This document shows positions 5,383 to 55,740 of a stretch of DNA of 64,000 bases, one piece after another. The stretch lies in contig OZ024741.1 in the NCBI GenBank assembly GCA_964016885.1, positions 326,678,001 through 326,742,000 on the forward strand. Reading direction: 5' to 3'. How positions within the stretch are numbered: the first letter of the stretch is position 1; each line of letters opens with the position of its first letter. This stretch comes from Eledone cirrhosa. Taxonomy: Eukaryota. The position numbers were made by a program, and so were the translations under genes. Under the pieces are notes generated by a model, which did no database searches, was not told the DNA's origin, and was given only the letters and a program-made list of their open reading frames with translations.

Positions 5383-5416
5383 GTGGTCTTTCACATCTTT
5401 TCCATTCCATTTCAAC

Positions 5417-8521: not shown

Positions 8522-8576
<55 letters not shown>

Positions 8577-8611
8577 ATAAAGAAAACATTATTATTATTA
8601 TTACTATATAT

Positions 8612-13034: not shown

Positions 13035-13905
13035 CGAGGTGTGTCGGAAAAGTTCCAGGACTGATGTCACAAAGGATTTATTTCAAACACAAACTTCACA
13101 CTAAGAGTTTTCTCCTTCAAAGTTAACGCACTGGAGTATGTAACTATAATCTTAGCTCTCTGCAGCGATCAAACTTTTTTCTTCATCATTTTATATACAT
13201 GTCTTCTGTTTCAGGTCGTCAAGCAATGAGCACAGAGCAACAGAGCAACGAACAAGCTTGAAGTTTCTGGTACGGTTGGGGAAAATTCCGTCAGAAGCAC
13301 TGGGATTGCTGCAGCAAATGTATGGAGATGAGACGTTGTCACGCTCACGTGTTTTTGAGTGGTGCAAGAGGTTTAAAGAAGGACGCGAGAACGTGGAAGA
13401 TGACCCCAGGAGCGGAAGGACCGCAACAACCAGGACTGTTCGACTGATGGCAAATGAGCTGGGCATGAATCGAGACAGCGTCTGGAACATTCTCACTGAA
13501 GATTTGGACATGCGGAAAGTCTGCGCGGAGATGGTGCCAAAAATGCTGAACGATGACCAGAAGGGTCGACGCATGCAAGTGTGCTGGGACAGCCTCGAGC
13601 GTCTTGTAACCGAACCAGACTTTCTAGGGACAGTCATCACCGGTGATGAGTCATGGATCTTCGAGTACGATCCGGAGGGGACCCGTTTTGAGGACGTGGA
13701 CGACATCATAAAGGCTGTGATGACGGAACTGCGGAGGATCTCGGAAGAATCCTTCCAGGAGTGCATGCAAGAGTTTCAGAAAAGGTAGGAAAAGTGCATT
13801 AGACTCCGGGGGGATTACTTTGAAGGGGAAAACTCTCAGTGTTAAGTTAGGGTTTGAAATAAACCTTTTGTGACATCAATCCTGGAACTTTTCTGACACA
13901 CCTCG
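13035..13905 (+). mobile_element. Mariner DNA transposon, internally deleted
   Basis: About 54-bp TIRs (cgaggtgtgtcggaaaagttccagg.. / ..cctggaacttttctgacacacctcg), TA on both sides. ORF 13258-13788 has an HTH (SRSRVFEWCKRFKEGR..DDPRSGR), MVPKML and VITGDESWIFEYDPE, then jumps to GTRFEDVDDI, so the rest of the DDD core is missing. Confidence 0.93.
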
Positions 13906-16957: not shown

Positions 16958-19900
16958 TTTGAAAACGGGATGATTAACATCATATCCAACATCAAATTCT
17001 CCGGAAACCCAACCAGAAGTCAGGAGTACCTCAGACACCTGAGAAACCGGATTACAGTACTTAAAGTGACAACTGGAATACTTGTCCATGCTGACAAAAC
17101 AAACAACCTCTACAACATGAACACTGAACTGTACAATACGCTAATCCTCAGGGAACTGAGGAAGTGCTACAAAAAAACACCTGGATTTACCCTGGATGAG
17201 ATCAATACCACAGCTTACAGGATTATATCCAGAATCGGCATAGAGGACAGGACGGCCCCATACAAACTAAGGGAGCCGCAGATTACCCTTAAATACCACA
17301 AGCCAAACTTTGAGTCCGACCTCCCTGTCAGACTAATAGCCCCCTCCAGATCTGACCTAGGGATCGTCAGTAAAAGAATACTGGATAGGATTTTGCCCAA
17401 GCTTCGGAAGAAAACTAAATTACAGCAATGGTCATGCACGGGAGAAGTAATAGAATGGTTTAAAATACTGCATTAGAAAAGTAGGACCAGCTTTATACAA
17501 CTGGACATCGCAAGCTACTACTCCTCAATCTCACCCATAGTACTAAATAAGGCCCTATTTTTAGCGATGTCCAATACGGACCTAACCCGAGGGGAGGTGA
17601 GCATCATCCACGCCGCAAGAAAGACCTTAATCCGCTTCGATGGAGACCTTTGGACAAGGAGTGATTGGCCAAATAACTTTGACATCACGATGGGCTCCAG
17701 CGACTCAGCGCAGGTAACGGACCTGGTTGGGCTCTACCTGCTGAAGCAGATAAAAGATGAAATCCCCTGCCTGGGCGGCGGATTATATCGTGACGATGCT
17801 CTATTCACAGTATATGACCACAGCACCAATATGTTGGAGGGTATGAGGAGGCGTATTCGCCATTTCTTTAAGAACCAGGGGCTCAGCATAGAAATAGACC
17901 CAAATAGGAAGGTAGTTAACTTCCTAGACACCTCTCTAAACCTGAACACCGAGCAATACTACCCCTACCACAAGCCAACGAGAAACTCGTATATGTTAAC
18001 GCCAAATCAAACCACCCTGGATCCATAACCAAGGCAGTGGTGAAGAGTGTCTCGGACAGGATCTCCAGCCTGTCCGCATGTAAGGAAATATTCAATAACC
18101 ACGCGGAATATTACAACGCAGCTCTAAAGAAGGCGGCACATGGCCAAAATATAACATATAGTCCGAAAAGCCGGGATGGGGATAGCCCAACAGACACCCA
18201 CAACCGGTTTGCCCGGGGGGGGGGGGCGACCCCTAACAATACAGGCAGAGCAGAATCAAATAGGCACCATGTGCCCGACACCACCAGACGGGCGGTGGAG
18301 ACTAGTGCGCTTGACCACGAGATGTAGCACAATATGAGTAGCAGTCTCAGGCGTGACGCTAACCACCCCAGGACAGACGACCCCAACCGCTGGACACGTA
18401 GGGGGGAGGGGGGAACGGGCGACCACCCCACGATGGATCTCCCGGGGCGGACAACGACCACCCCACAAATTCGGGCCGCGAAGATAACAAAAAGCATAGA
18501 GCCCAAAGAGGAAGCAACAGTGCGGTAACCACCAGCAGCCCAACAAATCTCCAACAAATCACGACGCCCCCGACCCACACATATAGGAGGAGACACCGAA
18601 AAATCACGTGGTACAACCCACCCTACTCAGTGACCCTAAAGAAAAGCTTGGCCCGATTATTCTTTGGAGCACTTGACAAATGCTTCCCGAGGGACCACAG
18701 ATACCACAGGATCTTCAACAGACACACTGTGAAGCTCTCGTATTCCACCACGATAAATTTGGCCCAACACATAGCTAGCATCAACAGAAGTAGGCTTAAA
18801 AACCACACACAACCAGAAGATGGCAATACAAACACTCAGCAGAACCATGTGAAAGGAGGAAATGGGGGACCCAGAGCCCACCCAAGAAACCCAAACAGAC
18901 CCGAGGACGCCCCACCGAGCCTGGGGGAAGACCAACATGGAACACATAACGGGAACCCTAATCTAGGCACGCAGAGACCGACCACCCTCTGCAACTGCAG
19001 AAACCCGAATCATGCCCCTTTGGTAATGAATGCCTCAAAAAGAACCTAGTATACGGTTGTAGGGTTAAAACCCCCAACTGCGAACACCTCTACATAGGAG
19101 CCACATCAACGAGCTTTAAAGACCGCTGGTACATCCATCGCCATTCATTCAAGAAGGAGGCCAAAAGGAAAAGCACAGCTCTCTCCGACCTGATCTGGAA
19201 GCTTAAGCTGGACAGGACCCCATATTATCTGGCCTGGTACATAATCAGGAAAGTACCACCCGATAAAGGGGGATCTTGCATATGCAAACTATGCCTGAAC
19301 GAGACCCTCGAGATACTAAGAGGTGGAAGCGGCCTGATAAACCTCAGAACCGACTTCTTCGGGATATGCAGACACCTTAGAGCCGGGACCTTTCTCAGGA
19401 TATATGGACAGTAGCAACACAAGAAGATGTGAACTCCCTTCAAGCTATAGGGACTTCTACAGAACATGAAAACACCTCTCGACCAGACCTCCCTCAAGCT
19501 ATATGGGCAGTCACAACACCCTAGGTTGTGAACTTCCCTCAAGCCATAGGGAACAAGCCAGGCTGAGCAGACACCATGATAGCCTAGAGATAGAACCGGA
19601 CACAGCCATTATAATTTGGCCAACATCTATATAACACAAACACATTTTAATTTACTAGATTTCTGATTTTCAAGTTCCAATTTTAAATCTTAATTTCTCT
19701 TTATTAATTTGTTATTTGTTTTCTGCCCTCTTCACTGTAACACCTTATATTTATTTTTAAGTTGAGATTGATTATAACACAAACACATTTAGTTTGATTA
19801 TCTTATCTTAACATCTTATCCTCATACCAATCTATCCAACATATTTCTGCCCTTGAGATTGGTTATAGCACACACACACTTTATCCTACACTATTTTTCA

Positions 19901-23519: not shown

Positions 23520-24380
23520 TAGACAAGGACAGTGGATGGTTTACATATATAGCTAGAAAAAATATAAATAACAATAACAAAATAACAATAAAATGCAAAC
23601 AACGGATCTTCCCGAGAGAGGGGATAACTACACAGAGACGGCTCAGGTATCCCACCAATTCTCAACCAAGTCTGGCATATATACGTAGAGGTCGTAGGGC
23701 AGGCAATCCAAACCGACTAGGCATCCAGAATCTCGGTTGAAGTTATCGGGAATTCGCAGCGCTCAGCATTGGCTGGCGAGAGACGCGGTAGGCTATCGGG
23801 GTAGGGACTGAAATCAGCTATCGTCACTGGCCCTCCGCTCCCCCCGAACAGCTAGCGAAAGGCCTCACATATATGCCTGGAATCGTTCAGATTGCGTTCG
23901 TCTTGGTCCATCAATGACCAAATTGTGGTTTTGTAACCACGCTGCGCCTCAACCACACATGCCCATCGAACAGCTTTAGCTCCCTCGTTAATTAGAGCAC
24001 GCGTCTTAGCTCTGACAATGCACCCTTCATGTTTCGTATTGAAGAAATGGCCCAATGCTATTCTCCGCGCTAGCACGTCAGTTACAATGCCTCTACAAAT
24101 AGCCTCCTTTAATGTTAACTCCCAGTTCCCCTTGCTTTCTATTTTTCTCTAGCGCTATCGATTACTTTAATCTTTCTTTTGAGAGCCCCCAACCGTCTGT
24201 TTTTGCCTACCCCCTGTCAACGTTTGCTTAACTAAATTTTTGACTCTGTCTTTGTAAACTTTACGTGTTCAGCTTCCTGTAACCAGGTCCTAACCATACA
24301 GATGACAAACTTGTGATCTGAATATGCGACCGTTTGAAAGTGTGGCCAACCTATCCTATCCTTAACTGATCTACAATCCA
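23520..24380 (-). mobile_element. Old, internally deleted Tx1 relic (copy E-like)
   Basis: 23852-24076 reads HFFNTKHEGCIVRAK..; 23520-23665 resembles the copy E 3'UTR (ggacagtgg.tg.tttaca..ctcaggta..caccaat). Confidence 0.8.
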
Positions 24381-26939: not shown

Positions 26940-29900
26940 GGTTTCTTTATTGGCCACAAGGGCTGACATCAATAAAAAACATCACAGACGGAACAGGACG
27001 GTACGGTGAGGGTTTTGTGCGTGTAAATATTTGTATTATTTATATAAGAAAAGAAAAAAAACATAAAACATATATAAATATAAACAATAAAATGAAAATT
27101 GAAACAATGAAAAATTCCCCAATAGGGGGGAAACCTCCGAGGGTTACTCGTGGCGAAAACCACACAAAAGACCACGGCCACCCCGACTACCAGGGCAAGC
27201 GCCCTCTCTCAATTTTTCCATCTCTCAAACTACAGACGCTCACCCCCCTTTCAACAAACTTGCTAGAAAGCAGCACTTGCCTCTCCACCCTGATAATCCT
27301 CTTGTGAAACTTGAAAAAGCTAATTAGGGATTCGCCGAAGAGGAAAGTGTTTGTCTTTAATCCTTTTAACCTTGTCCACCACACAATATCTTTCGCCATG
27401 GCCACCAGGCAGATGAAAACAACCTGCCCTTCCTCCTCGAAGGAAGACGGCGAGACCATCTGCACAATGGACTCAGTCGACAACCCGATCTGTCCCACAC
27501 GTGACAGCAACTGTTCGACATAGCTCCACAAGTCAGCAATGCTCGGGCACTGAACGAGTGCGTGCACAACGGTTTCGTCGCTATGCGCGCATCTCGGATA
27601 AGCTCGGCTGACGGCACTTCCATGCCTGTAGAGCTTATCTCGAACCGGCAGCGCCCCCGGTAGCACTGCCAGGCCAGGGATTTTTTGAAGTTATCCATAG
27701 GCCTCGGGCTGAAAGTTCTCCGGAAGAGAGCAAACATCTGATCTTCTTCGACGGCTAGGATCTCTCCGAGAATGTCGTCGCTCTTCCCCTCCACTAGTCC
27801 TCTATAGAACGCCGAGGTGGATGTTCCACCGATACTGGTGCCCAACTGGGAGAGGGCAGTGAGCGCCTGGAGACATTCCAATTTCCAAGCGCTATCCCTC
27901 GGTCCTTTTCTGACCCAGGACTGCAGCTCCGTCAAGGAGACGAGCTGTGGGAAAATGTGCCTGGCGAACGGCGACCACACCCGTTCACCATCAAGGAAGC
28001 ACCAGAGATGTCGCAGCCTCAGCGCATGTTTGCTCATCATCAGCCATGGCATGCCCAGTCCTCCACGCAACGGGTGTTGACAGCAGATGGATCGTCTGAC
28101 CATTGGAGCGCGTCCCTTCCACAAAAAGCGGAAGAGGAGGCGCTCCATTTTGGTGAGAGTTGGGCTGGAGCAAGGGACGACGGTGAGGCGGTAGCAGATG
28201 ACGGATGCGATGTACGCATTCGCCACTTCCGCCCGGCCTTTCAGGGACAGCTTCCTCTCAGCCCATTTCTGGGTGAGGGAGGCCACCCTGCTCGTCATCT
28301 CGTTCCAGTTTTTCTCCATCTGGAGGTCCGGTCCGAACCAGATCCCGAGCAATTTAACCGGTCCGTCCGTCCGACGCCCCACGACTCTGTCGGACGGCAT
28401 GGACTTGCCTCTCCAGGTGCCTAGCTGCAAGCCCACCGACTTTTCCTGGTTTATCTTTGCTCCTGTCACCGCTTCGTATTCCTTGAGAGCAGTGCCGAGC
28501 ATCTGGACGTGTCTGGTGCTCGACACCACCACAGTAACGTCGTCAGCGTAAGCCGACTCGAATTTCCCGTATCCTAGTTCGCGTGGGACGCCCCTCGTCG
28601 ACCCCAGTTTGTACAGTAACGTCTCGAGAGCCAATACGTACAAGAGGGACGAGAGAGGACAACCCTGGCGGACTCAGTGCATCATGCTGAACGGCTGCGA
28701 AAGGTGACCGTTCACCCTCACAACTGAGCAGATGTCGCTGTACATTGCTGCGATCCAACGCCTGAAAACGGGCCCGAAACCGGCTGCCTCGAGGACCGCC
28801 GCCAGGTACCGTTGGTCAACCCTATCGAATGCTTTGGATTGATCCAAGTTGATCAGGGCCCCACCTTTCCCAGGTTCCTTAACCACCCTTTCTATGATGT
28901 ATCGCATGAGGTGGAGGTTGTCGTGTATGGATCTGTCCGGAATGGCGCCTGTCTGCGCCTCTCCCACCAGACCCTTGACGACAAGCGCCAACCTCGTTGC
29001 TAACACCTTGGCCAAAATCTTGAACTCTGCGTTTAGCAGAGTTATGGGCCTGAAATTATCAATAATATCCCCCTTGTTCGGGTCTTTTCTCAGCAGCGCC
29101 ACTGCTCCCCGGCTCACAAAACTGGGAATGCTCCCGTTCTGCTGCCACTTGCAGTAGACGTCTGCCAAGAGGTCACTGAACAAGTCTGGCATAAATGCAT
29201 AAAGGTCGTAGGGCAGACCATCTAAACCTGGCGATTTACCTCTTGTGCAGTTAGCCATCGCTTCCCGTATTTCACCGGCTGTTATTGGCTTTTCGCAACA
29301 CTGTGCTGCGGTCGTCGAGAGCCGAGGCAAGCCGTCGAGGTATGCACTGAAGTCCATGCTCCTATCCGGGCCGCCCCCGCTCCCTAACAGTTCAGCAAAG
29401 TGCTGCTGAAAAGCTTCACATATCCGCTCGGGTTCGAGCATCACGCACCCGTTTTGGTCAGACAAAGACCGAATTGTGGCTTTGTTGCCACGTCACGCCT
29501 CTGCCACCCGGGCCCATTGGACGGCTTTTGTCCCCTCGTGATTCAGAGCGCGCGCTCTAGCTCTGACAACGCAGCCTTCGTGTTTTGCGTTGAAGAATTG
29601 GTCGAGTGCCAATCTCACCGCAAGCACGTCAGCTGCGATGCCTGTCCTAAACGCCTCTTCTAGCTTTCTGACTAGCTCTCCCTCTAATCTATTTTCCTCT
29701 ATCACTACTCCTTTGCTAAACCTAATCGACTCTACTTTAATTGCCCTTTTCAGGGCGAACCACCACCTGTTGTTGACGACCGCTCCCGTCAAAGCCCGCT
29801 TAACTAATACGCTAATCCGGTCTCTGTAGTTTGCCCGCCTGGAAAGACGCGTTCAGCTTCCAGTAACCAGGCCCTTGTCTATGAAGTCTGTCTATGTCGA

Positions 29901-32900
29901 TCTCACAGGTCACAAATCTGTGGTCTGTGTAGTCGACTATTTTAAATTGTGGACAACTTATACTAGCCTTATCTAGTTCCCTGCAGAATACCCTATCTAG
30001 ATACGATCTGGATGACCCCGATGCGGTTTGTCCATGTCCAGATTGGCACATTCGGGTCATCAAGTCGATACCTGTTAGACTGTTCAGAACGTCTGAGCAG
30101 GTTGGTGAGGCTCTTGCACCCTCCTCCCCTATCCACTAGCCCCACACGATCCCAGCGTGCATCCAAGATACCGTTCCAGTCGCCCACTAACACTAAAGAG
30201 CGGGACGTTCCAAGAAAGGTCTCTAGACGTCTGAAGAAATCTGGCCGTCCTTCCCCAGTTGGGGCGTAGACGGCTACTAGCCTGAAAGTATTGCCTTCGC
30301 TGCCGGTCACGTCCAGCACCACCGACTTACCTTCTGGGTCCAGGAAGATGGCCCGTATCGCGAGATCCAAGCCTCTCCGAAAAAGGACGGCAACGCCTCC
30401 CCCCGATCCTGGACGGCTGGGAGATGCGTATACATCGTAGCCGCCGAAGATTGGTGCGAAGGCCCGTGCCTCGGAGATTCTGGTTTCACTGATAGCCACC
30501 GCACCTATGTTTAGTGACCTGAGGTCATTGAGCAGGTGACCCTGCTTCCAAGATGACTCCAGGACACGTGCATTTATACTGCCTATTCTGAGTACAGCCA
30601 TGTTGGATGAGAAACGGGGCAAATGAGAGGAGTCACTTACCTTGTTCGTGTGATGAAGGGACAGTAGAACCGTCCCTTTCGCTGGTCATGGGTGTTTCCA
30701 AGAGGATGTCAGTGTATATCCTCTTGGTAACCGTCCCTCTGAAGTCTCCAACTGCGTTGGGGAATTTGTGTTTTAAAGGTTTGTACTGTTTGTACTATTG
30801 AGATTTCGATGATGCTTATGTTTGTCGGGAGAGTTCTTGGTGTTGGTGGGGTGTAGTAGTTTTTTTCCGTGATGTCTGTGTGCTGCTTTATATATTTTAT
30901 GAGTTCTTTTTTTGCTATGTTTATGGCTTTATACTTTTTTGGGGGAAGGGTGATTTTGTTGCCGTTTTCTTCTTGTTGCTGTTTGGTGTGTGTGTCTTGT
31001 TGTGTTTGTGTTGTTGGTGTTTGTGGTGGTGTTGCTGCAAGTTTCCTTGCTGCCTTTACCCCTCTTTGTATGCCTTCGCTTTTGGAGGGTGAATCTAAGG
31101 CTTTTTTTGTTTTTTGTTTTTTGTGGCAGACTGTTTGCCACGTCACTCCCGCCTCAAACACCATGTCGGATTCTGTGGCGTCTCGGAGGGGCATGTGCTC
31201 CACGGCTGCTGGTGGTGGTAGTGGAGCCCTCTTTGTCAATTTTGTTGCTGGTGTAGCTATTTCAAATGTAGCTATTGGTGTTGCCGCTACTGATGATGCT
31301 GCGTTAGTTAAACATGGCCTTGGTACGGGTGCTACGGACGTTGCCCTCCTACTCACCGTGGAAGGGGCTTCTTCGTTTGTTGCCTGTCCTGCTCTTGGTA
31401 GCATTGGACCAGGTATTGTAAGGAGAGGGGCCCTCTTCGGTGTCTTCTGCGGGCAAAAGGCCCTGAGGTGACCTTTCGACCCACAGAGATAACATTTTGG
31501 CAGTCTTCCTTCTACACTTATAGGGAGTTGGAGTCCTTCCTCAAAGTCTATGATATCGGGGATAGCCTCGATACATTCCTGGTCAGTTTGTATAAGCATT
31601 TGCATGCCTATACCTGACCAGTTCTCTCTCCCTATTTTTTCTACTTGCAGCTTGGTCGCCCTGTTCTCAATTCCAGCAAGGACAGACGTGGCCAGCCAAG
31701 GTATGGGCACGTCGTGTGATACCTGGGTCACTTTGACCCTCACAATTTTCTGCCCGCAGTAGGAGGGCACCAAGACTAACTCCTCACTCTTTAGGTTTCC
31801 AAAGAGTGGGACTTTGGGGTGTGGCTAAAAGTACGTCTACTGTGGCGTACTTTCTGCCTCGGGTGATGCGGGTTTTGCGTGCCCAGACGCACCCCAAGGC
31901 CTTTCAGATTTGAGCCTCCGTGGCTCTCTCCACTCGATGTGAGATTTTGCTTACGGTGCGATAAGTCACCGTCCGTAGCTACTGGTCCTTGAAAAAATCG
32001 GGTGGAGGTTTCAGGGAAACTCTATTTGCGCTTCTTGTCACCACGGCCCTTGCGACTGCCATCTCCTCCTCTGTGAGTAACACTGTCTCGATATTTTGGG
32101 CGACACCTGCAAAAGAAGTGGTCCCTTTTTCAACAGCACCACTATTGCTGCCGCTACTGGTCTTACTGGTGGTGCTGAGGTCGCTATTACAGCTTTCGGT
32201 GTCATTGTTGTTCTTTTCGCTGGTACAGTTGTTGGTGTTGTTTTCGTTGATACTGTTGCTGCTGTTACTGTTATTGTGGCTGTTGTTATTATTGTTGTTT
32301 TTGTTGATACTGTTCCTACTATTATTGTTGTTGTGACTGTTGTTATTGTCATTGTTATTGTCGTTCTCGACCTTACCGCTGTTATTTTTGTTATTGTCGT
32401 TCTGGACCTTACCGCTGTTATTTTTGTTATTGTCGTTCTCGACCTTACCGCTGTTATTTTTGTTATTGTCGTTCTCGACTTTACCGCTGTTATTTTTGAG
32501 TTGTTGTTGGTGATGTTGTTGGTGTTATTGTTGGTGTTATTGTTGGTGTTGTTTGTGTTAAAAATATTTGGTAATTTTAAATGTGTAACAATCTTTTTTT
32601 TCTTTGTAATATTTTCGTTTATATTTACCTCCGCTGGAAGCGTGTCTAGTTGACATGCTGATAAAGTCTCCCTCTCTCTGTGTTGTCTGACAGCGCTCTC
32701 TCTCTTTTTTGTGTTATCCATGTTGAAGTTTTTCAAAAAAAATATTTTTACACAAATACGAAAACGACACCCCGTAAAGGGCTAACGTATTATTTACTAG
32801 TGAACCCCTGTGTTAGGTGGGTCACTTCTTCTAAACTTTTATCAAATTTAAGACTTGAATAAAAGGTTTAGAACGGTTGAAATGAAGGTAAAACGTTGAA

Positions 32901-32934
32901 AAAAACTGGAGGCGAAAAGAAGCGTGGCTTCACC
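26940..32934 (-). mobile_element. Tx1-type retrotransposon, copy C (full length, disrupted)
   Basis: (AAT)n at both ends. ORF1 about 32721-30633 with CYLCGSKGHLRAFC; ORF2 from ATG 30601 (MAVLRIGSINAR, ISET, VGDWN, LDQSKAFD, AYADD, HALVQC); 3' end gcccttgtggccaataaagaaacc. Confidence 0.95.
32355..32497. repeat. 36-bp tandem repeat x4 in copy C ORF1 linker
   Basis: gttattgtcgttctcgaccttaccgctgttattttt repeated with period 36. Confidence 0.9.
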
Positions 32935-32967
32935 AACAATATTAATAATAATAATAATAATAATAAT

Positions 32968-33010
32968 TGTTTCTACTTTAGGCACAAGGCCAGCAATTAC
33001 CCAGTGCATT
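32968..33010 (-). mobile_element. 3'-terminal fragment of the Meta-like SINE embedded in (AAT)n
   Basis: Minus strand aatgcactgggtaattgctggccttgtgcctaaagtagaaaca matches 49752-49794 with 2 differences. Confidence 0.85.
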
Positions 33011-33036
33011 ATAATAATAATAATAATAATAATAAT

Positions 33037-36000
33037 GTTTTCTTTATTAACAACAAGGGTTTACATAAAGTAGACATTAAGGACAGTACAGGACAATACA
33101 GGACGGTACAAATGGGCATTTCTGCGTGTAAAAAAACAAAAACAGAGGATGTAACAAAAAAATAAACAATGAAAAATTCTCCAACAGGGGGGATACTTCC
33201 GAGGGACATTTGTGGAGAAAGCCCATTAAAAGGCCACAGTGACCCTGACCACCAGGGCAAGTGCCCTCTCCCAGTTTTCCACCTTTAATTTACAGACACA
33301 TACTCAAATATGCCCATTCACTCGGGCCATACTTGCTTCTCTCACCTATCTTTCAACAAAATGCTGGGAAGAGAGCACTTCCTTCTCTACCCTTATTTTC
33401 CTTTTCAAATAAAATTTGAAAAAGTTAATCAGGGCATCACCGAAGAGATAAGTGCTCGTCTTCAGCCCTTTCAAACGTGTCCACCATACTATCTCTTTCG
33501 CCATGGCCACCAGACAGATGAAAACTGCCTGCCCTTCCCGGCTAAAGGAAGAGGGCGGGGAAATCCTCACGATGACCTGCGCGCATCTCGGACATGCCCG
33601 GCTGACGGCACCTCCATGCCTGTAGAGTTTATCCCGAACTGGCAAAGCTCCTCGGTAGCACTGCCAGGCCAGAGATTTCTGGAAGTTGTCCATAGGCCCG
33701 GCCCGAATGTCCTTCCGAAGAGATTGGCTAGTTGATTTTCGTCTACGCCTAGAGTTTCTCCAAGTATGTCGTCGCTCTTCCCCTCCACTAATCTTCTATA
33801 GAACGCCATGGTGGAGGTTCCACCGATCACATTGCCCGATTGGTCGAGGGCTGTGAGCGACTGAAGACATTCCAGTCTCCAAGCGCTCCCTCTCGGTCTT
33901 CGGTTGACCCAGGACTGCAGCTCCGTCAAGGAGACGAGCTGGGGAAAGACGCGTCTAGCAAACGGCGACCACACCTGATCATATTCGAGTAATAGGTGGA
34001 GATGTCGTAGCCTGAGCGCCTGTCTGCGCATCATCAACCACGGCATGCCCAGCCCTCCACGTAGCGGTTGTTGACAGCAGATGGACCACCTGACCATCGG
34101 AGCGCGTCTCTTCCACAAAAAGCGAAAGAGCAAACGCTCCAGCGCAGTCAGGCGGGGCTTAGGACAAGGTACGACGGTCAGGCGGTAGTAGATGACGGAG
34201 GCGATGTAGGCGTTAGCCACCTCCGCTCGACCTTTCAGGGATAGCTTCCTCTCCGCCCATTTCTGGGTGAGAGAAGCCACCCTGCTCGTCACCTCGTCCC
34301 AGTTTTTGTCCGTCTAGAGGTTTCGACCGAACCAGACCCCTAGCAATTTAACCGGTCCGTCCGTCCAACGCCCGACGACGCTGTTGGACGGCATGGACAT
34401 GCCTCTCCAGGTGCCGAGCTGCAGGACCACTGACTTTACCTGGTTGATCATTGATCCTGTCACCGCTTCGTATTCTCTTAGTGTAGTGCCGATCGCCTCG
34501 ATGTGTTTGGCGTTGGACACCACTACGGTGACATCGTCCGCATATGCTGACACGGATCTTCCGCATCCTAGTTCGCGCGGGACCCCCTTCACCGTCTCCA
34601 GTTTGTGCAGTAATGGCTCGAGAGTCAATACGGACAAGAGGGACGAGAGCGGACATCCTTGGTGGACCGAGCGCATGATGTTGAACGGTTCCGAAAGGTG
34701 ACCGATCACTCTCACCAGAGAGCAGATGTCGCTGTGCATGGCAGCGATCCAGCCTCTCAAGACGGCCCCAAGGCTAGCCACCCTCAGGACTGCCGCTAGG
34801 TAACGATGGTCGACCCTATCGAAACTTTCAACTGATCTAAATTGATCAAGGACCCACCCGTGCTAGGTTCCCTAGCTACCCTCTCTACGATGTATCGCAT
34901 GAGGTGTAGGTTGTCGTGTATGGATCTGTGGGGAATGGCGCACGTCTACACCTCTCCCACCAGACCACCAACGACAAGCGCCAACCTCTTTGCTAGCATC
35001 TTGGCCAAAATCTTGAACTCTGTGTTTAGCGGAGTTCTGGGCCTGAAATTATCTATGATATCTCCCTTGTTCGGATCCTTTCTCGACAGCGCCACAGCTC
35101 CTCGGCTCACAGAGCTGGGAATACTCCCGTTCTGTTGCCAGTTGCAGTAGACGTCCGCCAAGAGGCCTCCGAACAAGTCTGGCGTCTGTACGTAAAGTTC
35201 ATAGGGAAGACCATCCAAACCAGGCGATTTACCCCTTGTGCAGCTAGTCATTGCCTCCCGTACTGCAGCGGCTGTTATCAGCTTTTCGCAACACTCCGCC
35301 TCAGTGGCCGATAGCCGCGACAGTCCGTTGTGGTAGACACTAGAGTCCATCCCTCGATCCGGCCCGCCGCTGCCCCCGAACAGCTGTGCGAAGTGTCGCT
35401 GAAAAGCTTCACTCACTTTCCCGGGATCGAGTAGCATGCGCCCGTCGTGTTCCACCAAAGACCGGATCGTGGCTTTTTTGCCACGACGCGCCTCCGCCAC
35501 TCGGGTCCATTGAACGGCTTTCGTCCCGTCGTGTCTCAGAGCACGATCACTAGCTCAGAGAACGCAGCCTTCGTGCTTTGCATTGAAGAATTGGTCAAGG
35601 GCCAATTTCGCCGCAAGTAAGTCGGTCGCGATGCCTTTGCAAAGCGCCTCGTCTAATTTTCTAACTAATTCCCCCTCTGCTCTATTTTTCTCTATTGCTA
35701 AAGCCTTACTAAACCTAATGGACTCTATTCTAATCGCTCTTTTCAGAGCAAACCACCACTTGTTGTTGGCGATGGCCCCTGTCAACGGCCGCTCAACTAG
35801 TTCGCTAATCCGGTCTCTGTAGGCCTTGCGCGCTGGTAAGGACGCGTTTAGCTTCCAGTAGCCGGGTCCTCGTCTATGAAGCCTATCTAAGTCAAGCACA
35901 CAGATCACGAATTTGTGGTCCGTGTAGCTGACTATTTTGAATTGTGGACAGCCTATGCTAGACCTATCTATTTCCCTACAAAATACTCTCTCTAGATATG

Positions 36001-38310
36001 ATTTGGATGACCCTATGCGATTTTTCCAAGTCCACATTGGCACATTCGCGAAATCCAATCGGTACCTGTTTGACAGTTCAAAACGCTTGAGCAGGTTGGT
36101 GAGGCTCTTGCACCCTCCTCCCCTATCCGCTAATCCCACACAGTCCCAACGTGCATCTAAGATCCCGTTCTAGTCGCCCACTAACACTAAAGCGCGGGAC
36201 GTTCCAAGAAAGGTCTCCAGACGCCGGGAGATATCAGGACGCCCTGCTCCTGTCGGCCACTAGCCTGAAAGCTTGCCCGTCTCCGCTGGTCACGTCCAGC
36301 ACTACCAACTTACCTTCTGGGTCCACGAAGATGGCCCGTATGGCGATATCCAAACCTCTCCGAAAAAGCAGGGCAACTCCACCCCCCAATTAGGACGGCT
36401 GGGAGATGCGTACACATCATAGCCGCCGAAGATCGGTGCGAAGGCCCGTGCTTCGGAGATTCTGGTCTCGCTGATGGCCACTACATCTATGTTTAGTGAC
36501 CTGAGGTCGTTGAGCAGTTGGCCCTGCTTCCATGACGACCCCAATCCACGCGCATTTATGCTGCCTATTCTGAGTGAGGTCATGTTGAAATGGAGTGGAA
36601 AAGATGGGAAAGACCACTTACCTTAGATGGTTTCTTCATCCCTTTTCACTTGATCGTCTGGTGAAGGGACCGTTGAATCGTCCCTTCGGCTGGCGTCGGC
36701 TCTTCTCTGAGTATATCCGAATATACTCTCCGGTTGAGTGTCCCTCCTAGGTCTCTGAAATCACCAACTGCGTTGGGTAATTTCATTTTAATGTTTGTGT
36801 ATTGTTTCTGTGATATTCTTACCAGTCTTATGTTCGTTGGTGTTTTGATTGGTGCTGGTATTATGTAGTTGTGCTGTGAAATGTCTGCGTGTTCAATTAT
36901 GTAAGTCATTAGTTTCTTGTTGTGTGTATTTATTGCTGTGCATTTCTTTTTCTGGCGGTGGGGTGTGGTTCTGCTATTTTCTTGTCGTTGTTGCTGGGTG
37001 TGTGTGTTTTGTTGTTGTGTTTGCGATGTTGGTGCTTGTGGTGGTGGTGTTGAAGGTGTTGTTGTTGTTGGCGGTGGGGTTGCCGCCGGTGGTTATGGTG
37101 GTGCTAGTGTGGGTGGTGATGGTGTTGGTGGTGTTGCTGCTGGAAGTCTCTTTGCAGTAACCTTTACCCTTTTTTCATTTCTTCCTGCGCTGCTTCTGCG
37201 TTTGTGCCTTCTTGCGACCTTTTGCCATCCCTCTCCCATCTCACACTCCATGTCCTATTCTGTGAGGTCGGGGAGTATACCAGCTCCAATCTTTCACTTG
37301 TTCTTGTTGGTTATGGTTGCAGTGGAGTCTTTGTTGCAGCTGCAGTTGGTATTACTGTTGTTGTTGTTAATACTTCCACTGCTGCTGTTGTTCTTGATTT
37401 TCGTGGCGTGGGTTTGGGTGCCACGGACCTATCCTTCCTGCTTGCCGCCTGTCCTGTTGCTGGCAGCAGTGGAGCCGGTTTCGGAAGGAGGGGGCTTTTC
37501 TCCTTTCTCAGGGTCTTCTCATTGCAGAAGGCCCTGAGGTGAGTCTTCGACCCACAGTGAAAGCATTTCGGGCGTTTGTCCTCAACACTTATGGGAAGTT
37601 GAGTGCCGTTATCGAAGTCCATCATATACGAGATAGCTTCGATGCACTCCTGGTTGGTTTGAATTAACATCTCAATGGAGCTGCCGACCCAATCTTCTCG
37701 TACTTTTTTCTGTACTTGCAGTAGAGTTGTTTTGTCCTCGATTCCGACGAGGAAAGACGCGGCTAGACAAGAAGGGGCCATCCGGGCATGTGTGTGTGTG
37801 TGGGGGGGGGGGGGGGGTCAGTTTGACCCTCACACTTTTTTGCCCGCAGTAAGAGGGCACCAACACCATTTCCTCGCTCGTTAGGGTCACTAAGGATTGA
37901 GTCTTTGCCTCCTGGGCTGTGGCAAAAAGCACGTCCACGGTGGCATATTTCTTGCCTCGGGTGATAAGCGTTTTCCGCTGCCACACAGACCCTAAGGCTT
38001 TTTGTATTTGAGCCTCTGTGGCCCTTTCAACCCTACGTGATTTGGTGCTTATTGTACGGTACGTGACCGTACAGTGCTGTTGGGTTTCGAAAAATGTTTC
38101 GACTGTCGTGCAGATTGCTCGGTGTCCGGTTTTCGTCACCACCTCCTTTGCTTCCTGTAATTTCTCATTTGTTTTAAGGATGGTTTCCAGGTTCTTTGCG
38201 ATACCTGCAAACGAGATTGGTTTTTCTTTCTTGTTGTTGCTGTTGTTATCGTCAGAGCTGCTGTTACTTTTGTTGTTGCTGCTGGTATTATGACCACCGC
38301 CGCCGCTGTG

Positions 38311-38344
<34 letters not shown>

Positions 38345-38947
38345 CTGTTTCTCCTGCTGCTGTTGTTGTTTATGCTGTTGCTGGTGATGTTGCGGCTGCT
38401 ACTAGTAATTTCCTTGTCACTGTTGCTGCTGTTATTACGGCTGCTGCTATTCTTCATGACGTCAGACGAATGAAATGGCTTTCCGTATTTACCGCACACA
38501 TTTTTCGTCGTTGTCGTCGTCGTGGAGAAATGTTCGACGGTATGCACGTTCTCTTGGTGAAAGCTACCAGAAGCTATCTTTTTCTTTTTCTTTAATCGCG
38601 CCGCTTGCGAAAGCGGCGACACCACATTTAGAGAAGGGAGGGAGAGAGACATTCTTCTCTCTGCTGTAATGACGATTGAGGAAGAAGAAGACGGAAAGAG
38701 TGTGAGTGACTTGTGAAAATTCTTTTTTGTAGCCATGTTTTTTTTTTTACGGTTTAAAATGAATATTGGGCACAAAACGCCAATAAGCGGTTATTTAACA
38801 CCGAAGGGCCAAATAACGGACAGAAAGACCCCTCTCATGAGGAAGGGGGTGTTTATCTACAATTTGGTTTTAAACGATTTACAATTGTTATGGCGGTTAA
38901 AAGTTACTATACCTTATAGAGCCGAGCCTCTGTCAACCATGGCATTC
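33037..38947 (-). mobile_element. Tx1-type retrotransposon, copy D (full length, disrupted)
   Basis: (AAT)n flanks. ORF1 from about 38736 with CFHCGSKTHLRAFC; ORF2 36583-33290 and 3'UTR very close to copies A and B. Confidence 0.95.
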
Positions 38948-38983
<36 letters not shown>

Positions 38984-38985
<2 letters not shown>

Positions 38986-41900
38986 TTTCATTTATTAGCC
39001 ACAAGGGCCGACATGTAGGGGACAATACAAAGACAGGGACAGTGGGTGTTTACAATAAAGTCGAGTAAAAGTGCACAATGGCAGGACTAATTTTATAATG
39101 GAGATATAAAAATATAAAATAAACTATGCATAAATATAACAAGATAAATTCCCCTCTAGGAGGTGGATGACCCAGGTGTGACTCAGGTACCTCACCAATC
39201 CTGAACCACCCTGCGCTTCTAGGGCACCCAGGGAGAGCACCCCTCTCCTCAAGTTAGCTAGCCTATAGGCGCATGGTCAGAGTGGGCCCATTCACACGAG
39301 CCATTCTCGCCACATTCATCCACCTGGGGGAGGGGGGACAGCACTTCCCTCTCCACCCTCACCTTCCTTTCCAGATGAAACTTGAAGAAGTTGATGAGAG
39401 ATTGGCCGAAGTGAAACGTCTGTCTTCAGTCCTTTTAATCTGGTCCATCATATAACCTCTTTCGCAACGGCCACCAGATAGAGGAAAATTTTCCCCTCTT
39501 CCTGACCTAAGGAAGGCGGCGGATCCATCTTCACTATGGACTCGGCGATAGCCGGATCCGTTCCACACGCGACAGTAGCTGATCGACATAACTTCGCGGG
39601 TGAGTAATGCACTGACATTGGACAAGTGCGTGCAGCACGGTTTTGTCGCTCTGTGCGTATCTTGGGCACGTCCGTCTGACAACACCTCCGTGCCTGTAGA
39701 GTTTATCCCGAACCGACAGAGCCCCCCCCCCCCGGTAGCACTGCCAAGCAATGGATTTTTGGAAATTGTCCATCGTCCCCGGCTCGAAAGTCCTCCTGTA
39801 CAGACTGGTCAGTTCGACTTCGTCGAGGCCCAAAGCTTCTCCGAGTGCGTCATCGCACTTGCCCGCCACTAATCCTCTATAGAATTCGAGAGTGGAAGTT
39901 CCACTGATCGCATTGCCCGCTTGGTAGAGGGCAGTGAGTGCCTGGCAACATTCCAGGTGCCAGTCATCCAGACTCGGTCTCTTCTTGACCCAGGATTGCA
40001 GCTCAGTCAAAGAAACGAGCTGCGGAAAGGCCCGTCTGATAAACGGCGACCACACTGTTCACCGCTTAGGCAAAATATCTTGAGATGTCACAGCCTCAGC
40101 GCATCTCTGCGCATTATTAGCCACGGCATGCCCAGCCCTCCGTGTAGAGGGTGCTGGCAGCAGATGGACCGCCTCACCAACGGAACTTGTCCTTTCCACA
40201 AGAATTTAAGAGGAGCCGTTCCAACTTGACGAGGCGCGGACCTGGGAAAAGCACGACGGTCAGGCTGTAGTATATGACGGACGCGATGTACGCATTCGCC
40301 AACTCTGCGCGACATTTCAGTGATAGCTTCCTCCCAGCCCATTTTTGGGTGAGACTGGCTACTCTGCTCGTTACCTCGTCCCAATTCTTTTCCACCTAGA
40401 GGTCTGGTCCGAATCAAACCCCGAGCAACTATACCGGTCCGTCCGTCCAGCGCCCCACGACGCTGTTTGACGGCATAGGCTTGCCTCTCCTGGTTCCGAG
40501 CTGCAAGTCCACCGACTTTTCCGGGTTAAGTTTGGCTCCTGTCAACCTTTCATATTCTTTCAATAAGGTGCCGACCACCTCGATTTCTGAGGTGTCCGAC
40601 TTTCCACGTCCCGGTCCGAGTGGGATGCCCTGCAACAGCTCCAGCTTCCGCAGTAAAGGCCCGAGAGTCAATACGTACAGAAGGGAAGATGAGGGCACCC
40701 TTGACGGACCGACCGGGAGAGCAGAAATGGTTCCGAGAGGTGGCCATTAACCCTGACCACCGAGTGTGTGCCGCTGTGCATTGCAGCGATCCAGCTTCTG
40801 AAGACAGGGCCGAAGCCAGGTGCTTTGAGGACAAACTCCAGATACCGATGGTCGACCCTATCGAATGCTTTCGATCGATCTAAATTTTTCAGTGCCCTAC
40901 CGAAGCCAGGTTTACACCCTACCTTTTCTATGATGTATCGCATGAGGTGGAGATTGTCGTGTATGGACCTGGCTGGGATTGCACAAGTTTGCGCCTCCCC
41001 AACCAAATTCTCGACGACAAGCGCCAATCTCTTTGCTAACACTTTGGCCAAAATCTTAAACTCTGTGTTGAGCAGAGTTATGGGCCTGAAGTTGTCTAAT
41101 GTATCCCTCTTGTTCTCGTCTTTCCTTATCAGCGTCACCACTCCCCTGCTCACAGAACTGGTTATACTTCCATTCTGCTGCCAGTTGCAATAGAGTGCTT
41201 CGAGGAGATCGGAAAACAAGTCTTACGTAAACATATAGGGCAGGCCATCCAAACCGGGTAACTTGCGCCTCATGCAGCCGACAAGGGCGTCCTGAATTTC
41301 GGCTGAAGTAATCGGCATTTCGCAGCCCTCAGCCTCGACCGTCGAGATGCGCGGCAAGCCGTCGAGTTAGGGACTCAAATCCGCTACTCTCTCTGACTCG
41401 CCACTCTCCCCGAACAACCGACCAAAGTGCTGGCGAAAGGTCTCACACATCCACTTGGAATCGCTTATCTCGTGTCCGTCACGGTACGCCAAAGACCGAA
41501 TTGTGGTTTTATTACCACGGTGCGTCTCCGCCACGCGGGCCCACCGATCAGCTTTGGTTCTCTCGTTTCTCAGCGCACGCGCCTTAGCTCTGACAATGCA
41601 ACCTTCGTGTTTCGCATTGAAGAAATGGTCTAACGCCATTCTCGCCGCTAGCACGTCAGTTGCAATTCCACAACAAATAGCCTCGGTTACTTATCTACCA
41701 GCTCTCCCTCTTTTCTATTTTTCTCTAACGCTAGTTCTTTGCTGAACTCTCTTTTGAGAGCCTCCTTACCATATGTGTTGGTGATCTCCCTTGTCAACTT
41801 TTGCTTAACTAGATTGTTGACTCGGTCCCTGTAAGCCTTACGTGCCGGAAAGACATGTTCAGCTTTCAGTAACCCGGTCCCAACCTACGCGTTTTATCTC

Positions 41901-44828
41901 GGTCGACCATACAGATCACAAATTTGTGATCTGAATAGGCGACCGTTTTAAAAATGGGCAGCCTACAATATTTCTATCTATTTTCCTATTGAAGATGCTG
42001 TCTATATACGATCTAGATGATCCTATGCGGTTGGTCCACGGCCACACAGGTGCATTGGGGAAATCTAATCGATGCCCTGTCAGACAGTTGGAACTGGCTG
42101 ATTAGGTGTTTGAGGCTTTTGAACCCCCGCTCCTATCAGCTACTCCCACACAATCCCAGCGTCCGTTAAGATGCCGTTCCAGTCCACCGCTAACAGTAGA
42201 GGGCGATACGTACCCAGAAAGGTTTCCAGGCGCCTAAAGAAGTCCGGTCGTCTGGCCCCAGTAAGGACGTAGACGGCCAGCAGTCTAAAGGCACCACCTT
42301 CGCTACTGCTCACATCCAGGACCACCAACTTCCCGTCAGGGTCCCGAAAGATCGACCTTACCTTGAGATCCAGACCTTTCCTAAACAGCACTGCCACCCC
42401 ACCTCCCATTCCTTGCCTGCTAACATATGCGAATATCTGATAGTCGTCGAAAATGGGGACTAGTGCGCGCGTGTCGGAAATCCTAGTCTCGCTGACGGCA
42501 ATCACATCCATTTCCAGAGACCTGAGGTCGTTGAGTAGGCGACCCTGCTTCCAGGTTGACTCCATGCCGTGAACATTTAAACTTCCTACTCTTAATATGG
42601 CCATGTTGGCAAGCTAAAAGAGAGAGGGAAGATTTACTTACCTCTCGGGGTCTTGTGAAGGTCGGGTGGTTCGACCTTCATGTTTATTGGGGTTTATTTG
42701 GGGAACCTCTTTAAAAGTCTTGATGTGGGTTTCACGTTCGGGGGTCTCACGTCTTGAAGAAAGCTCTCTCGAATTTCTTTGTAGGAATTGAGTAACATTC
42801 GCACCAGAAGAAAATCTTCTGGCACGCAAAATGTGTTCAATTCTAAGTTCTCCCCCCCTGTTTGGATGTCCTCGTTTCGTGCTAAGAGGGCCATCAATTT
42901 ATCGTTGGCCCTTCTGACAAGCACGAAGTTTTTAATGTTTTGTTTGTGTGGTTATATTTGTTTTCGTTTTGGTGACTGTGGTGGTGATGGTTTTGGTGGT
43001 GTTGTTTCGGGTATGTCTGTGTTTGTTGTAGGTGTGGTGTCTGCAATTTCAGGTGTCTGTGTGTTTATTTCTTCTTGTGATTGTTTAGGTTGTTTGCGTT
43101 TCGGGGATTCTGTGGGGTGGTGTTGATGTTGATGTTGGAGTTATTGGGGAAGTGTTTGCGTTAGTCGTGTCTGTATTTTTGTTGTGTACGTTTTTGCGTT
43201 TTGTTGGGGCTTTTTCTCGGTGATTTTTCTCTTTAGATTTTTGGCACTTTTTGGTTTTCCTTCATCTTCACTGCTGGAAGACAAAGGGTCGGTAGCTGTG
43301 AGTGTATATGTGTCTGTCTGTGCATTTATTGTTTGTCTATGTGTATAATTGGAGTGGTAGGGAGAGCTTTCCTCGTTTTTCCCTTGGATTGGTTTCGGTG
43401 CTGGTGGTGGTCCGACTGTTTTTGATGTTGGTGGGGTTACCCGTCTCATTGTTGGTGTTGTTTTGGGTGGTGGTAGTGGTGCAGCATTCCGTGCTGACAC
43501 TGGTGTTGGCAACGAAGGAGGTTTGCGACCCTGCATTTTTGAGCTGAGGGCAGAAGGCTTGCAAATTCGTTGCTTCCCCGCAGACGAAGCAGTGCGGCCG
43601 TCATCCCTCAGCGATTAATTGGATTGTTGTCCCGTCCTGCAGGCGAGCAAAATCCGGTATGTCGTTGATGTCCTCTCTGGGTTTATTTGGAGAGAAATCT
43701 CCAAATCCATTCCGGACCAGTCTTCTCTATCTTCCCTTTTGATATCCAGGAGGGTAGTGTCTGACCCTCCTGGATTACGCATCCCAGGAGCCACCATATG
43801 TTCATTCCTGGTGGGATCCTGGGAATGCGGACCTTTACTGTCCTTTTGCCCATGTAGGACGGGTGCATGATAATGCGTTCCGTTCTGCAGGGGGTCACCG
43901 AGTGCTTAATAGCAAGGGCCTCGGTTTTGAACAGTACCGAGATGGTACCAAACTGCTTGGCCCTTCCTTTATACTCTATGTCACTTCCGATGCACTTCAA
44001 AGTAGCCTCAACCTCTGCTTGGCTGGCAAGTTCCACTGTGCGTGTCTGCACTGAAATGCATCGAAAGTACACCCTCCTCCTTTACATGGCCGTTATTGCC
44101 CCGTCTGGGATGGTCAGGTTTGCTAGGACATCTCCCATTTAATTAACCTCCACGCCTGGGCCAACTGTTCGTCTTTATCGCTAATCTCAACATTCAATTA
44201 GCGCTTTGTTTTCGCTGCTGCCACTGCAAAGGTGGTGCCTCTGTTGCTCTTCTTGTTGGTGTTATCGTTCTTGCGGTTGTTGTTGGTGTTGCTGTTGTTG
44301 TTTTGTTTGTTGTTGCTGTTGCCACCGCCAACCGTGTTTATATTGAGGCTGTCGCTGTTATTGTCGTTGTTGTTCTGAGTTGTTGTTGTTGCTGTTGTGG
44401 TGGGGGTGGTGATGTCGTTTTGAGATGATACTGCTACTATCACAGAAGGGAGCGGTTGTGATGGTAACTTTTGTGTTTTGCCTTCAAATTCAGTGGAATG
44501 GTCGACAGGCATGTCTGTAGTAGTAGTAGTTGTGGTGTATCTACAGTGGCTGTTTTTGAACTTTTGACCTGAACGTTGTTTACCGTTTCAAGGTCGAAAA
44601 TTTCCATATTTCTTTTTTGGTGAGGAAGCGATTTTTCGAAGTTTTTAAAAATAAATCTGAATGTTCGGGCTTAAAGCCCGAATATTGAGAGGTCTCCCCC
44701 TAGGAGCCAAGGTGTATACCTTATGCTTCATTAACCACAAGAAAATACAAAAAAATGATACTTTAAAACAGCTTAAAGTTACGAAGCTTTCCCCCCGAAG
44801 ACTTGTACGTCTTCATACATGTGCGTCC
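38984..44828 (-). mobile_element. Tx1-type retrotransposon, copy E (divergent family, more decayed)
   Basis: (AAT)n flanks. ORF1 about 44607-42638 (TFAVAAAK, CFVCGEA..LQAFC); ORF2 from ATG 42604 MAILRVGSLNVHG; 3' end ggcccttgtggctaataaatgaaatc. Confidence 0.93.
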
Positions 44829-44832
44829 AATA

Positions 44833-44865: not shown

Positions 44866-45015
44866 TAGTCCAGTCCCGCTTCAAAAGGCATGCTTTCTGG
44901 GAACAGCAAAAACCCTCCGATACTTCCTGAATATTTGAGGCTGCAGGTAGCGGCTTGATATTCATTTCAACAAATTTTCCAGTTAAATAACATCAATGAC
45001 TGAGACTCAAAGAAC
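44864..45015 (+). mobile_element. 5'-truncated R4/Dong-like 3' end
   Basis: ISPVPLQKACFLGTAKTLRYFLNI* (44864-44938), short 3'UTR, (AAT)n on both sides. Confidence 0.75.
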
Positions 45016-54059: not shown

Positions 54060-55740
54060 TTATTAAAATAACAGATTAAAGTTTAAGCAAAGAATCGCTG
54101 CTTTCACCCTTAACGGGATCTTCTGAAACTAACAAAGTCAATCTGTGAACGCAGAAGTGGATATTTCAAAAAACGTTGCAACCGGAGGAAGATAGGAAGA
54201 AGATACTTTGGTTCGTGGAAACGTTCCCTGGCAAAGAACGGGAAAAAAGAAATATATACGTCATTAATAGGAGCGGTGAAAAAGAATTACACGCAAAGAC
54301 AGAACCACGTTTATGATATAAAAGAAGTCGTAGACTAATGTTCTCTTAGGTGGTTCATAGAGACTTTCTCTGGCAATGAACGGAAAAAAACGATGATAAT
54401 ACGTCATACGTGGGGCGTGGAAAAGAATTGTACTCAAAGACAAAACCACGTAAATGGTATAGCTGAAGTCGTAGACTAAAATTCTAACAAGAAAACCGAA
54501 TGAAACTCCGCTTCAGAGTTAAGAATAAAGTAAATAAAATACAATACAGAGTTAATTGATATTAAATAAATACATACCCGCATCCAAATACGTACATACA
54601 CAGGCATACGCGAAAACACTCGCCATAGGTATACAAACCACGCACATATAAATATGTGTGTGTGTGTGTGTGTGCGTGTATACAAATAAATAAGTAATTA
54701 AATAAACGTATATAAATAAATAAATACGTATATAACAAGCGCACACACATACCTAGATGTAAATACACAAATGTTCGGAGACGAACGTCAACCAAAACAT
54801 GAAGTACACATATACACACACCCAACATACGTACGAGCCCGTATAATCACACAGACGCAAAACTCCCGTATACACATAACCAAGCATATGTACCAGAATA
54901 TATAAAAATATACGCCATAACATATACAATCAAATATACGTACGAAAAAGTATACGTACCTTCACAAAACATACAGGTAATATATACTTGCCTATGCAAA
55001 TAAGTAATGGTATAAACAAAGTATATACTTAGCTACCACATCAAGACGTAAACTATGCGCGTATAGATCGTACTATCCGTTAGGGTATAATGTGGGGCTG
55101 TAATACAGGAAAGTTTTGTGCAATTTATATTTACAAGCCGAAATTGCCTCAGATTTTTTGTTTAAGATTTTGTCTGTGGCGTCGAGTATTTCCAGGGCCT
55201 CAGCGGCGCAGAGGTCACATGGTCTTTGATTTCCGTTATACGATCTAGCCCTAGCTAGGATCTCCCAGTGTAACTTATATTGGGTGGGGATGTCTTGTTG
55301 GCTCCAGATATGAGCTGAAAGTGACGTCATATTCCTTCTTAGAGGGTAACGAAAAGAATGGGTATGCATGTAAAGACGCTGCTTGAATCTATTGGCGGTT
55401 AACACTATGTAGGCCCTACGGGACGTGGGTGTTACAACCTTACATTTGTAGAAAATGTTACTAGAGAGGCATTTTCCGGATAGGGGGCAATCAACCCGAT
55501 TCCTACAATTACAGTTAGTACTAACTACAGGGTTGCACGTGTTCCTACGGCAAGGTAGTTTAGCTAGATTTGAAGCTGTGATGTTATGTGCAAGGTTAGG
55601 AGTCCTAGAGTAAGACATTTTAATAGTATTTCTATTAAAGATTTTACTATGTTTATGTGTAGGGGGAAAATGTTTCATAATAAGGGATAGAAAGATCTTA
55701 GCTAATGGTGTGGCCACCTCCATTTTATATCCGGAAAAGA
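54060..55740 (-). mobile_element. 5'-truncated Naiad-like PLE (GIY-YIG part and 3'UTR)
   Basis: ORF 55073-55723: KIFNRNTIKMSYS, CNCRNRVDCPLSGKCL, IFY..AYIVLT..FKQR, CDLCAAE, LNKKSE; about 142-bp duplication at 54229-54479 in the 3'UTR. Confidence 0.88.

Follow-up and report, generated by a model that had tools for sequence, protein, structure and literature searches.

An octopus LINE that combines the ORF2 of one family with the ORF1 of another, and a conserved splice-donor motif at the ORF1 stop that may have taken part in the exchange

The 64,000-nucleotide (nt) stretch of Eledone cirrhosa DNA analyzed here (contig OZ024741.1; hereafter the window) carries, within its first 45 kb, five related non-LTR (LTR, long terminal repeat) long interspersed nuclear elements (LINEs) of L1/Tx1 type, elements A to E. 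One of these, the full-length but decayed element D, is by sequence comparison a recombinant whose first open reading frame (ORF1) derives from a sister lineage of element C, while its ORF2 is of the type found in element B. We regard D as almost certainly a real recombinant. The reading of its origin that we tentatively favor, at just short of an even chance, is that a C-related promoter and ORF1 were joined to a B-type ORF2 when a donor at the end of the C-type ORF1 was spliced to a cryptic AG close to where a B-type ORF1 ends, the product then being retrotransposed.

Elements B and D are 92–93% identical from TAAGGTAAGT through the 3′ end, as the first-pass annotation of this DNA had reported, and identity in 50-nt windows rises from 54% to 96% at the motif. 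Over ORF2 and the 3′ untranslated region (UTR), DNA identity is 93.4% for B and D, 80.2% for B and C and 80.4% for C and D (about 70% to E), so that the ORF2 of C is indeed the more distant one. In the ORF1 core the ranking is different: C and D are the closest pair both in DNA (66.6%, against 57.3% for B and C and 55.8% for B and D) and in protein (61.4%, against 48.8% and 46.1%), and the ORF1 motifs on which the annotation had based the same conclusion were recovered in C and D, with poorer versions in B, e.g. PKEIGDFR. Approximately unbiased (AU) tests with E as outgroup support (B,D) for ORF2 (alternatives p<1e-60) and (C,D) for the ORF1 core (alternatives p=0.021), while the last 330 nt of ORF1 alone gave no resolved topology; among the copies in the window, then, the two trees that the annotation proposed to compare are incongruent. 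Because the ratio of ORF1 to ORF2 distance is 2.7 for B and C, 2.4–2.7 in comparisons with E and 1.8 for C and D, as opposed to 10 for B and D, D is the odd one and B and C are congruent. The possibility that B is the recombinant was ruled out, since its ratio to C is the baseline. The ORF1 of D is a cousin of the ORF1 of C rather than C itself, as one third of the core bases differ. All four 5′UTRs differ, as had been stated, but not all are unrelated: shuffling points to weak homology between B and E (0/500) and between B and C (3/500), while C and D (109/500) and B and D (161/500) are within chance.

The breakpoint itself had been placed at the donor motif of D, AG/GTAAGT (36616–36623, minus strand, immediately 3′ of a TAA). 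That placement has to be corrected, since the switch lies at 36649/36648, 27 nt 5′ of this motif. Upstream of the switch is a C-type ORF1 end (36649–36700, minus strand; local score 58, 0/2000 shuffles), which has no match above chance in B and whose last 45 nt match C 30685–30641, ending at the final base before the GT of the C donor. Downstream of it is a B-type piece of 23 nt (36626–36648, minus strand), which matches B 5337–5358 at 20/23 positions (0/2000 shuffles) and has no match in C, in E or in the upstream DNA of D itself; its B counterpart sits right after a CAG at B 5334–5336. After this piece D lacks 16 nt that are present in B and then continues with the TAAG/GTAAGT of B. Thus, the statement that B and D cannot be aligned just upstream of the motif holds for the bulk of that DNA, though not for these 23 nt. 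D contains two versions of one homologous stretch, C-type at 36700–36649 and B-type at 36648–36626, and its join is out of register, duplicates that stretch and falls where the C-type parent has its donor, judged against the cousin C rather than the true parent. Because the C-type segment ends just before the GT of C and the B-type piece starts just after a CAG, one event would yield the observed letters, which are those expected from a splice.

In the account that we favor, the normal function of the donor would be to skip ORF2 by use of an acceptor in the 3′UTR, giving an ORF1-only mRNA. On one occasion, a C-type donor would instead have been spliced to a cryptic AG located 42 nt before a B-type donor. 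The B-type acceptor could have come from read-through RNA of copies arranged head to tail in a single (ATT)n tract, or from a second RNA in trans, and the spliced RNA, carrying the donor, ORF2 and 3′ end of B, would then have been retrotransposed and founded a family.

The donor motif AGGTAAGT does not vary among the four octopus copies that include this region (B, 5377–5384; C, 30635–30642; D; and E, 42636–42643), amid diverging neighbors. It follows a TAA stop in B and D and lies within the last ORF1 codons in C and E, which argues that the constraint acts on nucleotides, and we infer that this motif functions as a 5′ splice site. The motif, which the annotation had singled out, is not special to the B/D junction, being present in C and E as well. 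Two database ORF1 proteins, one of them from Argonauta, end in Gly-Lys(-Ser), which is consistent with the motif but no proof of it. A candidate acceptor, a pyrimidine tract followed by CAG, lies in the 3′UTR of D (33122–33145, minus strand) and also in that of B (at 8449); A has CAT and C has CAC at this place. Two other arrangements were rejected for the octopus copies: a mini-intron in the spacer, where an AG is found only in E (28 nt), and a second donor after the ORF2 stop, where only weak words occur. Of 56 distant L1-like loci fetched, the ORF2 start was located in 29, none of which has the ORF1-stop motif. A literature search turned up no paper describing a donor conserved where the ORF1 of a LINE stops, Repbase and most subscription journals lying outside its scope.

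The same donor word is present in a distant relative family. A GTDB bacterial metagenome-assembled genome (MAG) record (G001, loci L057–L094) contains tandem arrays of intact eukaryotic L1/Tx1 relatives, evidently as host DNA contamination. In ORF2, these elements share about 37% identity with the octopus copies over the whole length and 47% in the reverse transcriptase (RT) piece, and a quick RT tree, which contains only unnamed relatives and no named Tx1 family, unites them with the octopus copies in a single clade on a long branch, to which 15 other L1-like rows do not belong. GGTAAGT follows the ORF1 stop in 70/70 ends read with a pattern that excluded the motif, with copies in overlapping loci counted repeatedly. 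In all 42 ends read, GTRAGT, with A/G variable at +3, is found 17 nt 3′ of the ORF2 stop, and about 250 nt beyond it comes a pyrimidine tract with TAG; this donor and downstream acceptor form a candidate 3′UTR intron (L065 9466–9720 and equivalents) in all genomic copies read. Both donors lie less than 50 nt from a stop, and an exon junction within 50 nt of a stop as a rule escapes nonsense-mediated decay. Upstream of ORF1, at about 3810–3835 of L065, an acceptor-like word is followed by AAA/GTAAGT, the donor word being present in three of the five loci checked. Rfam searches of five relative loci gave no match near the gathering score, and no small nuclear RNA, tRNA or spliced-leader target was seen. 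A broader proposal, that a functional 5′ splice site is retained at the stop of ORF1 in a deep L1/Tx1 lineage, where it would provide an ORF1-only mRNA by removal of ORF2 and would found new families by splicing a promoter and ORF1 onto the ORF2 of another family, seems to us possible but unlikely.

The relative family also exchanges its ORF1. Among 55 distinct copies, the flank sufficed to type 52 (ORF2 types defined at a 98.5% cut-off), and four of the eight ORF2 types were found to carry two ORF1 types each, in 14+10, 4+3, 5+1 and 1+1 copies. The swapped ORF1 pairs are 75, 76, 74 and 93% identical, respectively, the 93% pair being marginal; misassembly is possible for tandem arrays in a MAG, but the two larger pairs occur on several contigs. 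The last difference between ORF1 types lies 124, 74, 74 and 136 nt 5′ of the donor, and diagnostic sites closer to the donor go with ORF2. This lineage has thus exchanged its ORF1 repeatedly, and no hybrid seen has lost the donor. The idea of switching at a defined site is only half borne out: the join of D does fall at the donor position of its C-type parent, but it is 27 nt upstream of its own donor, and the four swaps of the relative family lie 74–136 nt upstream of the donor. The arrays themselves are long and head-to-tail, with a period of about 6.4–6.8 kb and no poly(A) between units, and neighbors are 99.8% identical in L065.

Several observations weigh against the splicing account. At the join, the AG of B (5334–5336) has no pyrimidine tract and would be a weak acceptor; C and B have short words in common nearby (ACAAG, AGTGA), such that a microhomology join and one deletion of 3 or 5 nt would yield the same letters as a splice; and the parental end point is read from the cousin C, 33% away, not from the true ORF1 parent. 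A second perfect AAG/GTAAGT lies about 305 nt past the first within the endonuclease of D (36308–36315), C (30325–30332) and B (5681–5688), E having none at that place, which indicates that such words can also arise from Gly-Lys codons. The candidate 3′UTR acceptor is intact in only two of the five octopus copies, B and D. Among the relatives, no ORF1 donor is present in the L093 lineage, which belongs to the same clade, though a donor does lie 43 nt past its ORF2 stop; no spliced, ORF2-less or intron-less copy was found in G001, an incomplete record; and all four swaps are, from their diagnostic sites, in-register crossovers in the conserved C-terminal block and not splice products. In addition, when public runs, none of them catalogued as RNA, were compared with D, the donor was used by none of the 15 joints listed (of 1668).

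Foremost among the alternatives is a real hybrid formed on short microhomology without splicing, whether by an RT template jump, by insertion, where a C-type ORF1 ends, of a B-type copy whose 5′ truncation lies 42 nt before its donor, or by deletion between tandem copies, in which case the donor would be a retained cis element marking the edge of the conserved block. We consider this a serious possibility, only slightly less likely than splicing. The short words in common at the join, the absence of a splice signature in the swaps of the relative family and the DNA substrate that tandem arrays offer all fit it, and ORF1 shuffling in another LINE group has been proposed to proceed through nested 5′-truncated insertion (PMC4120745). 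However, it requires either that the event landed at the exact donor base or that an additional, exact small deletion took place, and the site of the join is not an (ATT)n tract, unlike the sites of the four full-length copies.

It is improbable that homologous crossover took place in register close to the donor and that the 23-nt piece was added later by local duplication or as a conversion patch from a B-type copy. Such crossovers are the rule in the relative family, and the 16 nt that D lacks before its donor indicate that this region was remodeled. Nevertheless, the piece matches B rather than the upstream copy of D itself, and two events would be required.

That D is a single-locus chimera or a misassembly is very improbable, one point in its favor being that a single contig bridges the join among the best 24 of 99,528 pieces of public runs aligned to D at 85% likeness. 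That contig, from run X5 (1412 nt, depth 77.7), spans 36557–37950 and reaches 92 nt into the B-type side of the join; with 101 other letters and 65 gap letters, it is about 7% from D, so that D is probably a family. All four runs, across two organism labels, give depth over D-type ORF1. Summed depth, which is not copy number, is roughly flat along ORF2 and drops five- to six-fold in the join bin, from 605,808 to 121,588 in X1 and from 711,003 to 117,360 in X4, two runs that bear different organism labels. We read this step only as a sign that D-type ORF1 is present in many copies and that most B/D-type ORF2s have another 5′ part. The incongruent trees, the contig across the join, the depth step and the repeated swaps in the relative family support the original suggestion that a promoter and ORF1 were swapped onto a common ORF2. 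Over the last 400 nt of the element (33045–33438), depth in X5, unlike that in X1 and X4, is 5- to 15-fold higher than over ORF2, which may reflect 3′ bias, truncated copies or a short interspersed element with the same tail. Finally, the reading in which there was no recombination and ORF1 merely evolved much faster than ORF2 can scarcely be correct, for although ORF1 diverges about 2.5 times faster than ORF2 here, B and D would require a ratio of 10, identity jumps from 54% to 96% within one window and the ORF1 tree rejects (B,D).

Element D occupies 33037–38947 on the minus strand. Its 5′UTR of about 210 nt (38737–38947) aligns to B or C no better than chance. The C-related ORF1 (36623–38736), the reading frame of which is broken by frameshifts and stops, consists of an N/S-rich head, two domains resembling RNA-recognition motifs (RRMs), a CCHC knuckle at about 37565, a low-complexity linker and the conserved C-terminal block, the RRM fold being taken from a model of the B core. 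The B-type ORF2 (33290–36583), also broken, encodes an APE endonuclease, RT and a zf-RVT region, and AATAAA and the 3′ end lie at 33037–33048. In both B (5414–5421) and D (36580–36587), one upstream frame crosses the spacer and ends in ACATGA overlapping the ORF2 ATG, possibly representing stop-start coupling, although these copies are broken. A GGGGAATTTT-like motif in the 3′UTR (window 33171–33182 and 8396; L065 9834) is common to the octopus elements and their distant relatives and is possibly an RT recognition site.

The remaining elements are A (1–3135, plus strand), of which only the 3′ part is present, as the window edge cuts it, and which has an ORF2 of B/D type; B (3448–8522, plus strand), the sister of D in ORF2; C (26940–32935, minus strand), the cousin of D in ORF1; and E (38984–44832, minus strand), the outgroup. 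Stops and frameshifts break every copy. (ATT)n is found at the 3′ end of all five elements and directly 5′ of all four full-length copies in the window, one of these latter tracts being the tail of another element and one that of a stub. E, D, a short stub and C form a head-to-tail series, in which the tract at 38948–38983 is both the tail of E and the 5′ flank of D, in tandem, and that at 33013–33036 is the tail of D (both minus strand). Short pieces lie between (ATT)n runs at 8574–8587, 32968–33012 and 44866–45015; the first two resemble 3′ stubs of truncated family members and suggest that one tract received insertions more than once. At 23777–24157 lies a sixth fragment of ORF2, more decayed and nearest to E (72%). 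Other transposon-like ORFs occur at 13191–13788, 16970–18028 and 55073–55723, of which, by eye, we take one to be mariner-like and the others Penelope/GIY-YIG-like.

With regard to class, PF03372 (APE endonuclease) and PF00078 (RT) were detected on ORFs of the window and PF13966 (zf-RVT) in close homologs, and an ORF2 profile built from 22 relatives matched human L1 ORF2p far better (E 6e-135) than R2 (1e-43), which together place the elements in the L1 group. A separate ORF1, short spacer, AATAAA, simple-repeat tail and absence of LTRs agree with the L1/Tx1 layout. The modeled core of the B ORF1 (pLDDT 91.5) has tandem-RRM proteins as its best fold matches (E 2e-4, TM 0.25–0.38), and with RRMs predicted directly 5′ of the CCHC knuckle, ORF1 is of type I in the scheme set out in PMC4120745. 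The mammalian type II ORF1 (coiled coil, RRM and C-terminal domain; Transposase_22) was considered and rejected, there being no Pfam hit and no L1 ORF1p among the sequence matches or the listed fold matches. A HMMER search with ORF1 returned 288 relatives, and of ten homologs looked up, seven were named Octopus or Argonauta proteins and none was named for another taxon, in keeping with an octopod host. Word-index protein searches with the ORF1 of B and the ORF1 end of D gave no match, no locus in JGI metagenomes matched the endonuclease of C, and the ORF2 alignment had no match in viral contigs. Four database proteins (P0010, P0024, P0043 and P0082, of which P0024 is a RefSeq isoform from O. 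sinensis) fuse unrelated exons to pieces of ORF1, as would result from exonization or annotation error.

Two open questions are how LINEs acquire new 5′ ends and how one bicistronic RNA yields ORF1 protein in large excess over ORF2 protein. For the second, a fixed donor at the ORF1 stop offers a directly testable answer, and D provides a base-resolved join for the first; even if splicing played no part, there would still be a well-mapped, repeated exchange of ORF1 in an invertebrate LINE lineage. Exchange of ORF1 between LINE families is already known, and the swap as such is nothing unusual; what is unusual is a join resolved to the base and a donor conserved so deeply. Ty1/copia elements produce spliced gag-only mRNAs, and HAL1 elements consist of ORF1 only. 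As proposed here, these provide a subgenomic RNA that gives excess structural protein, but the former are LTR elements and the latter genomic deletion derivatives, and neither is known to retain a donor where the ORF1 of an autonomous LINE stops.

Comparison with other LINEs, drawn from the portions of the cited sources available to us, places these features in context. Tx1-clade LINEs that target microsatellites include Kibi, Koshi and crocodilian Tx1 (PMC4494074), and like the elements described here they have two ORFs, an APE endonuclease with RT, and copies in a simple repeat; that repeat is (TC)n, (TTC)n or (TTCC)n rather than (ATT)n, and the available text does not mention a splice donor. 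In Octopus vulgaris, 80 L1-Tx1 families have been described, 13 of them recently active, with 421 insertions of mean length 5.4 kb (PMC13282606), and the elements of the window probably belong among such families; as far as available, that account gives counts only, with no hit for ‘ORF1’ in its supplement. TART is known for spliced antisense and putative subgenomic RNAs (PMC1636488). In the CR1/L2 LINEs, ORF1 shuffling, for which nested truncated insertion is the proposed route, has led to a tree-like ORF2 and a reticulate ORF1 of type I (RRM and CCHC), as in the octopus elements, but these were old transfers between lineages with no mapped join, and ‘splic’ has no hits in the text available (PMC4120745), whereas the join of D is mapped to the base. 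Mammalian L1 has likewise placed new 5′ ends on a conserved ORF2, through 5′UTR replacement and recombinant families (PMC5381506, PMC5872511), but mostly the 5′UTR was replaced or the breakpoints lie within ORFs, ORF1 is of type II, and ‘splic’ has no hits in the accessible part of PMC5381506. Spliced mRNA/L1 chimeras and spliced integrated retrotransposed elements (SpIREs) in human, with exons ending at donors, have led their authors to speculate that such chimeras drive 5′ exchange (bioRxiv 10.1101/2025.02.02.635956). These chimeras have a 5′ part that runs to a donor and an L1 part that begins after an acceptor, and they were retrotransposed, as we suggest from sequence for D. However, they use the donor of a host exon and are mostly single copies, whereas in the history proposed here both partners would be LINEs and the product a coding family.

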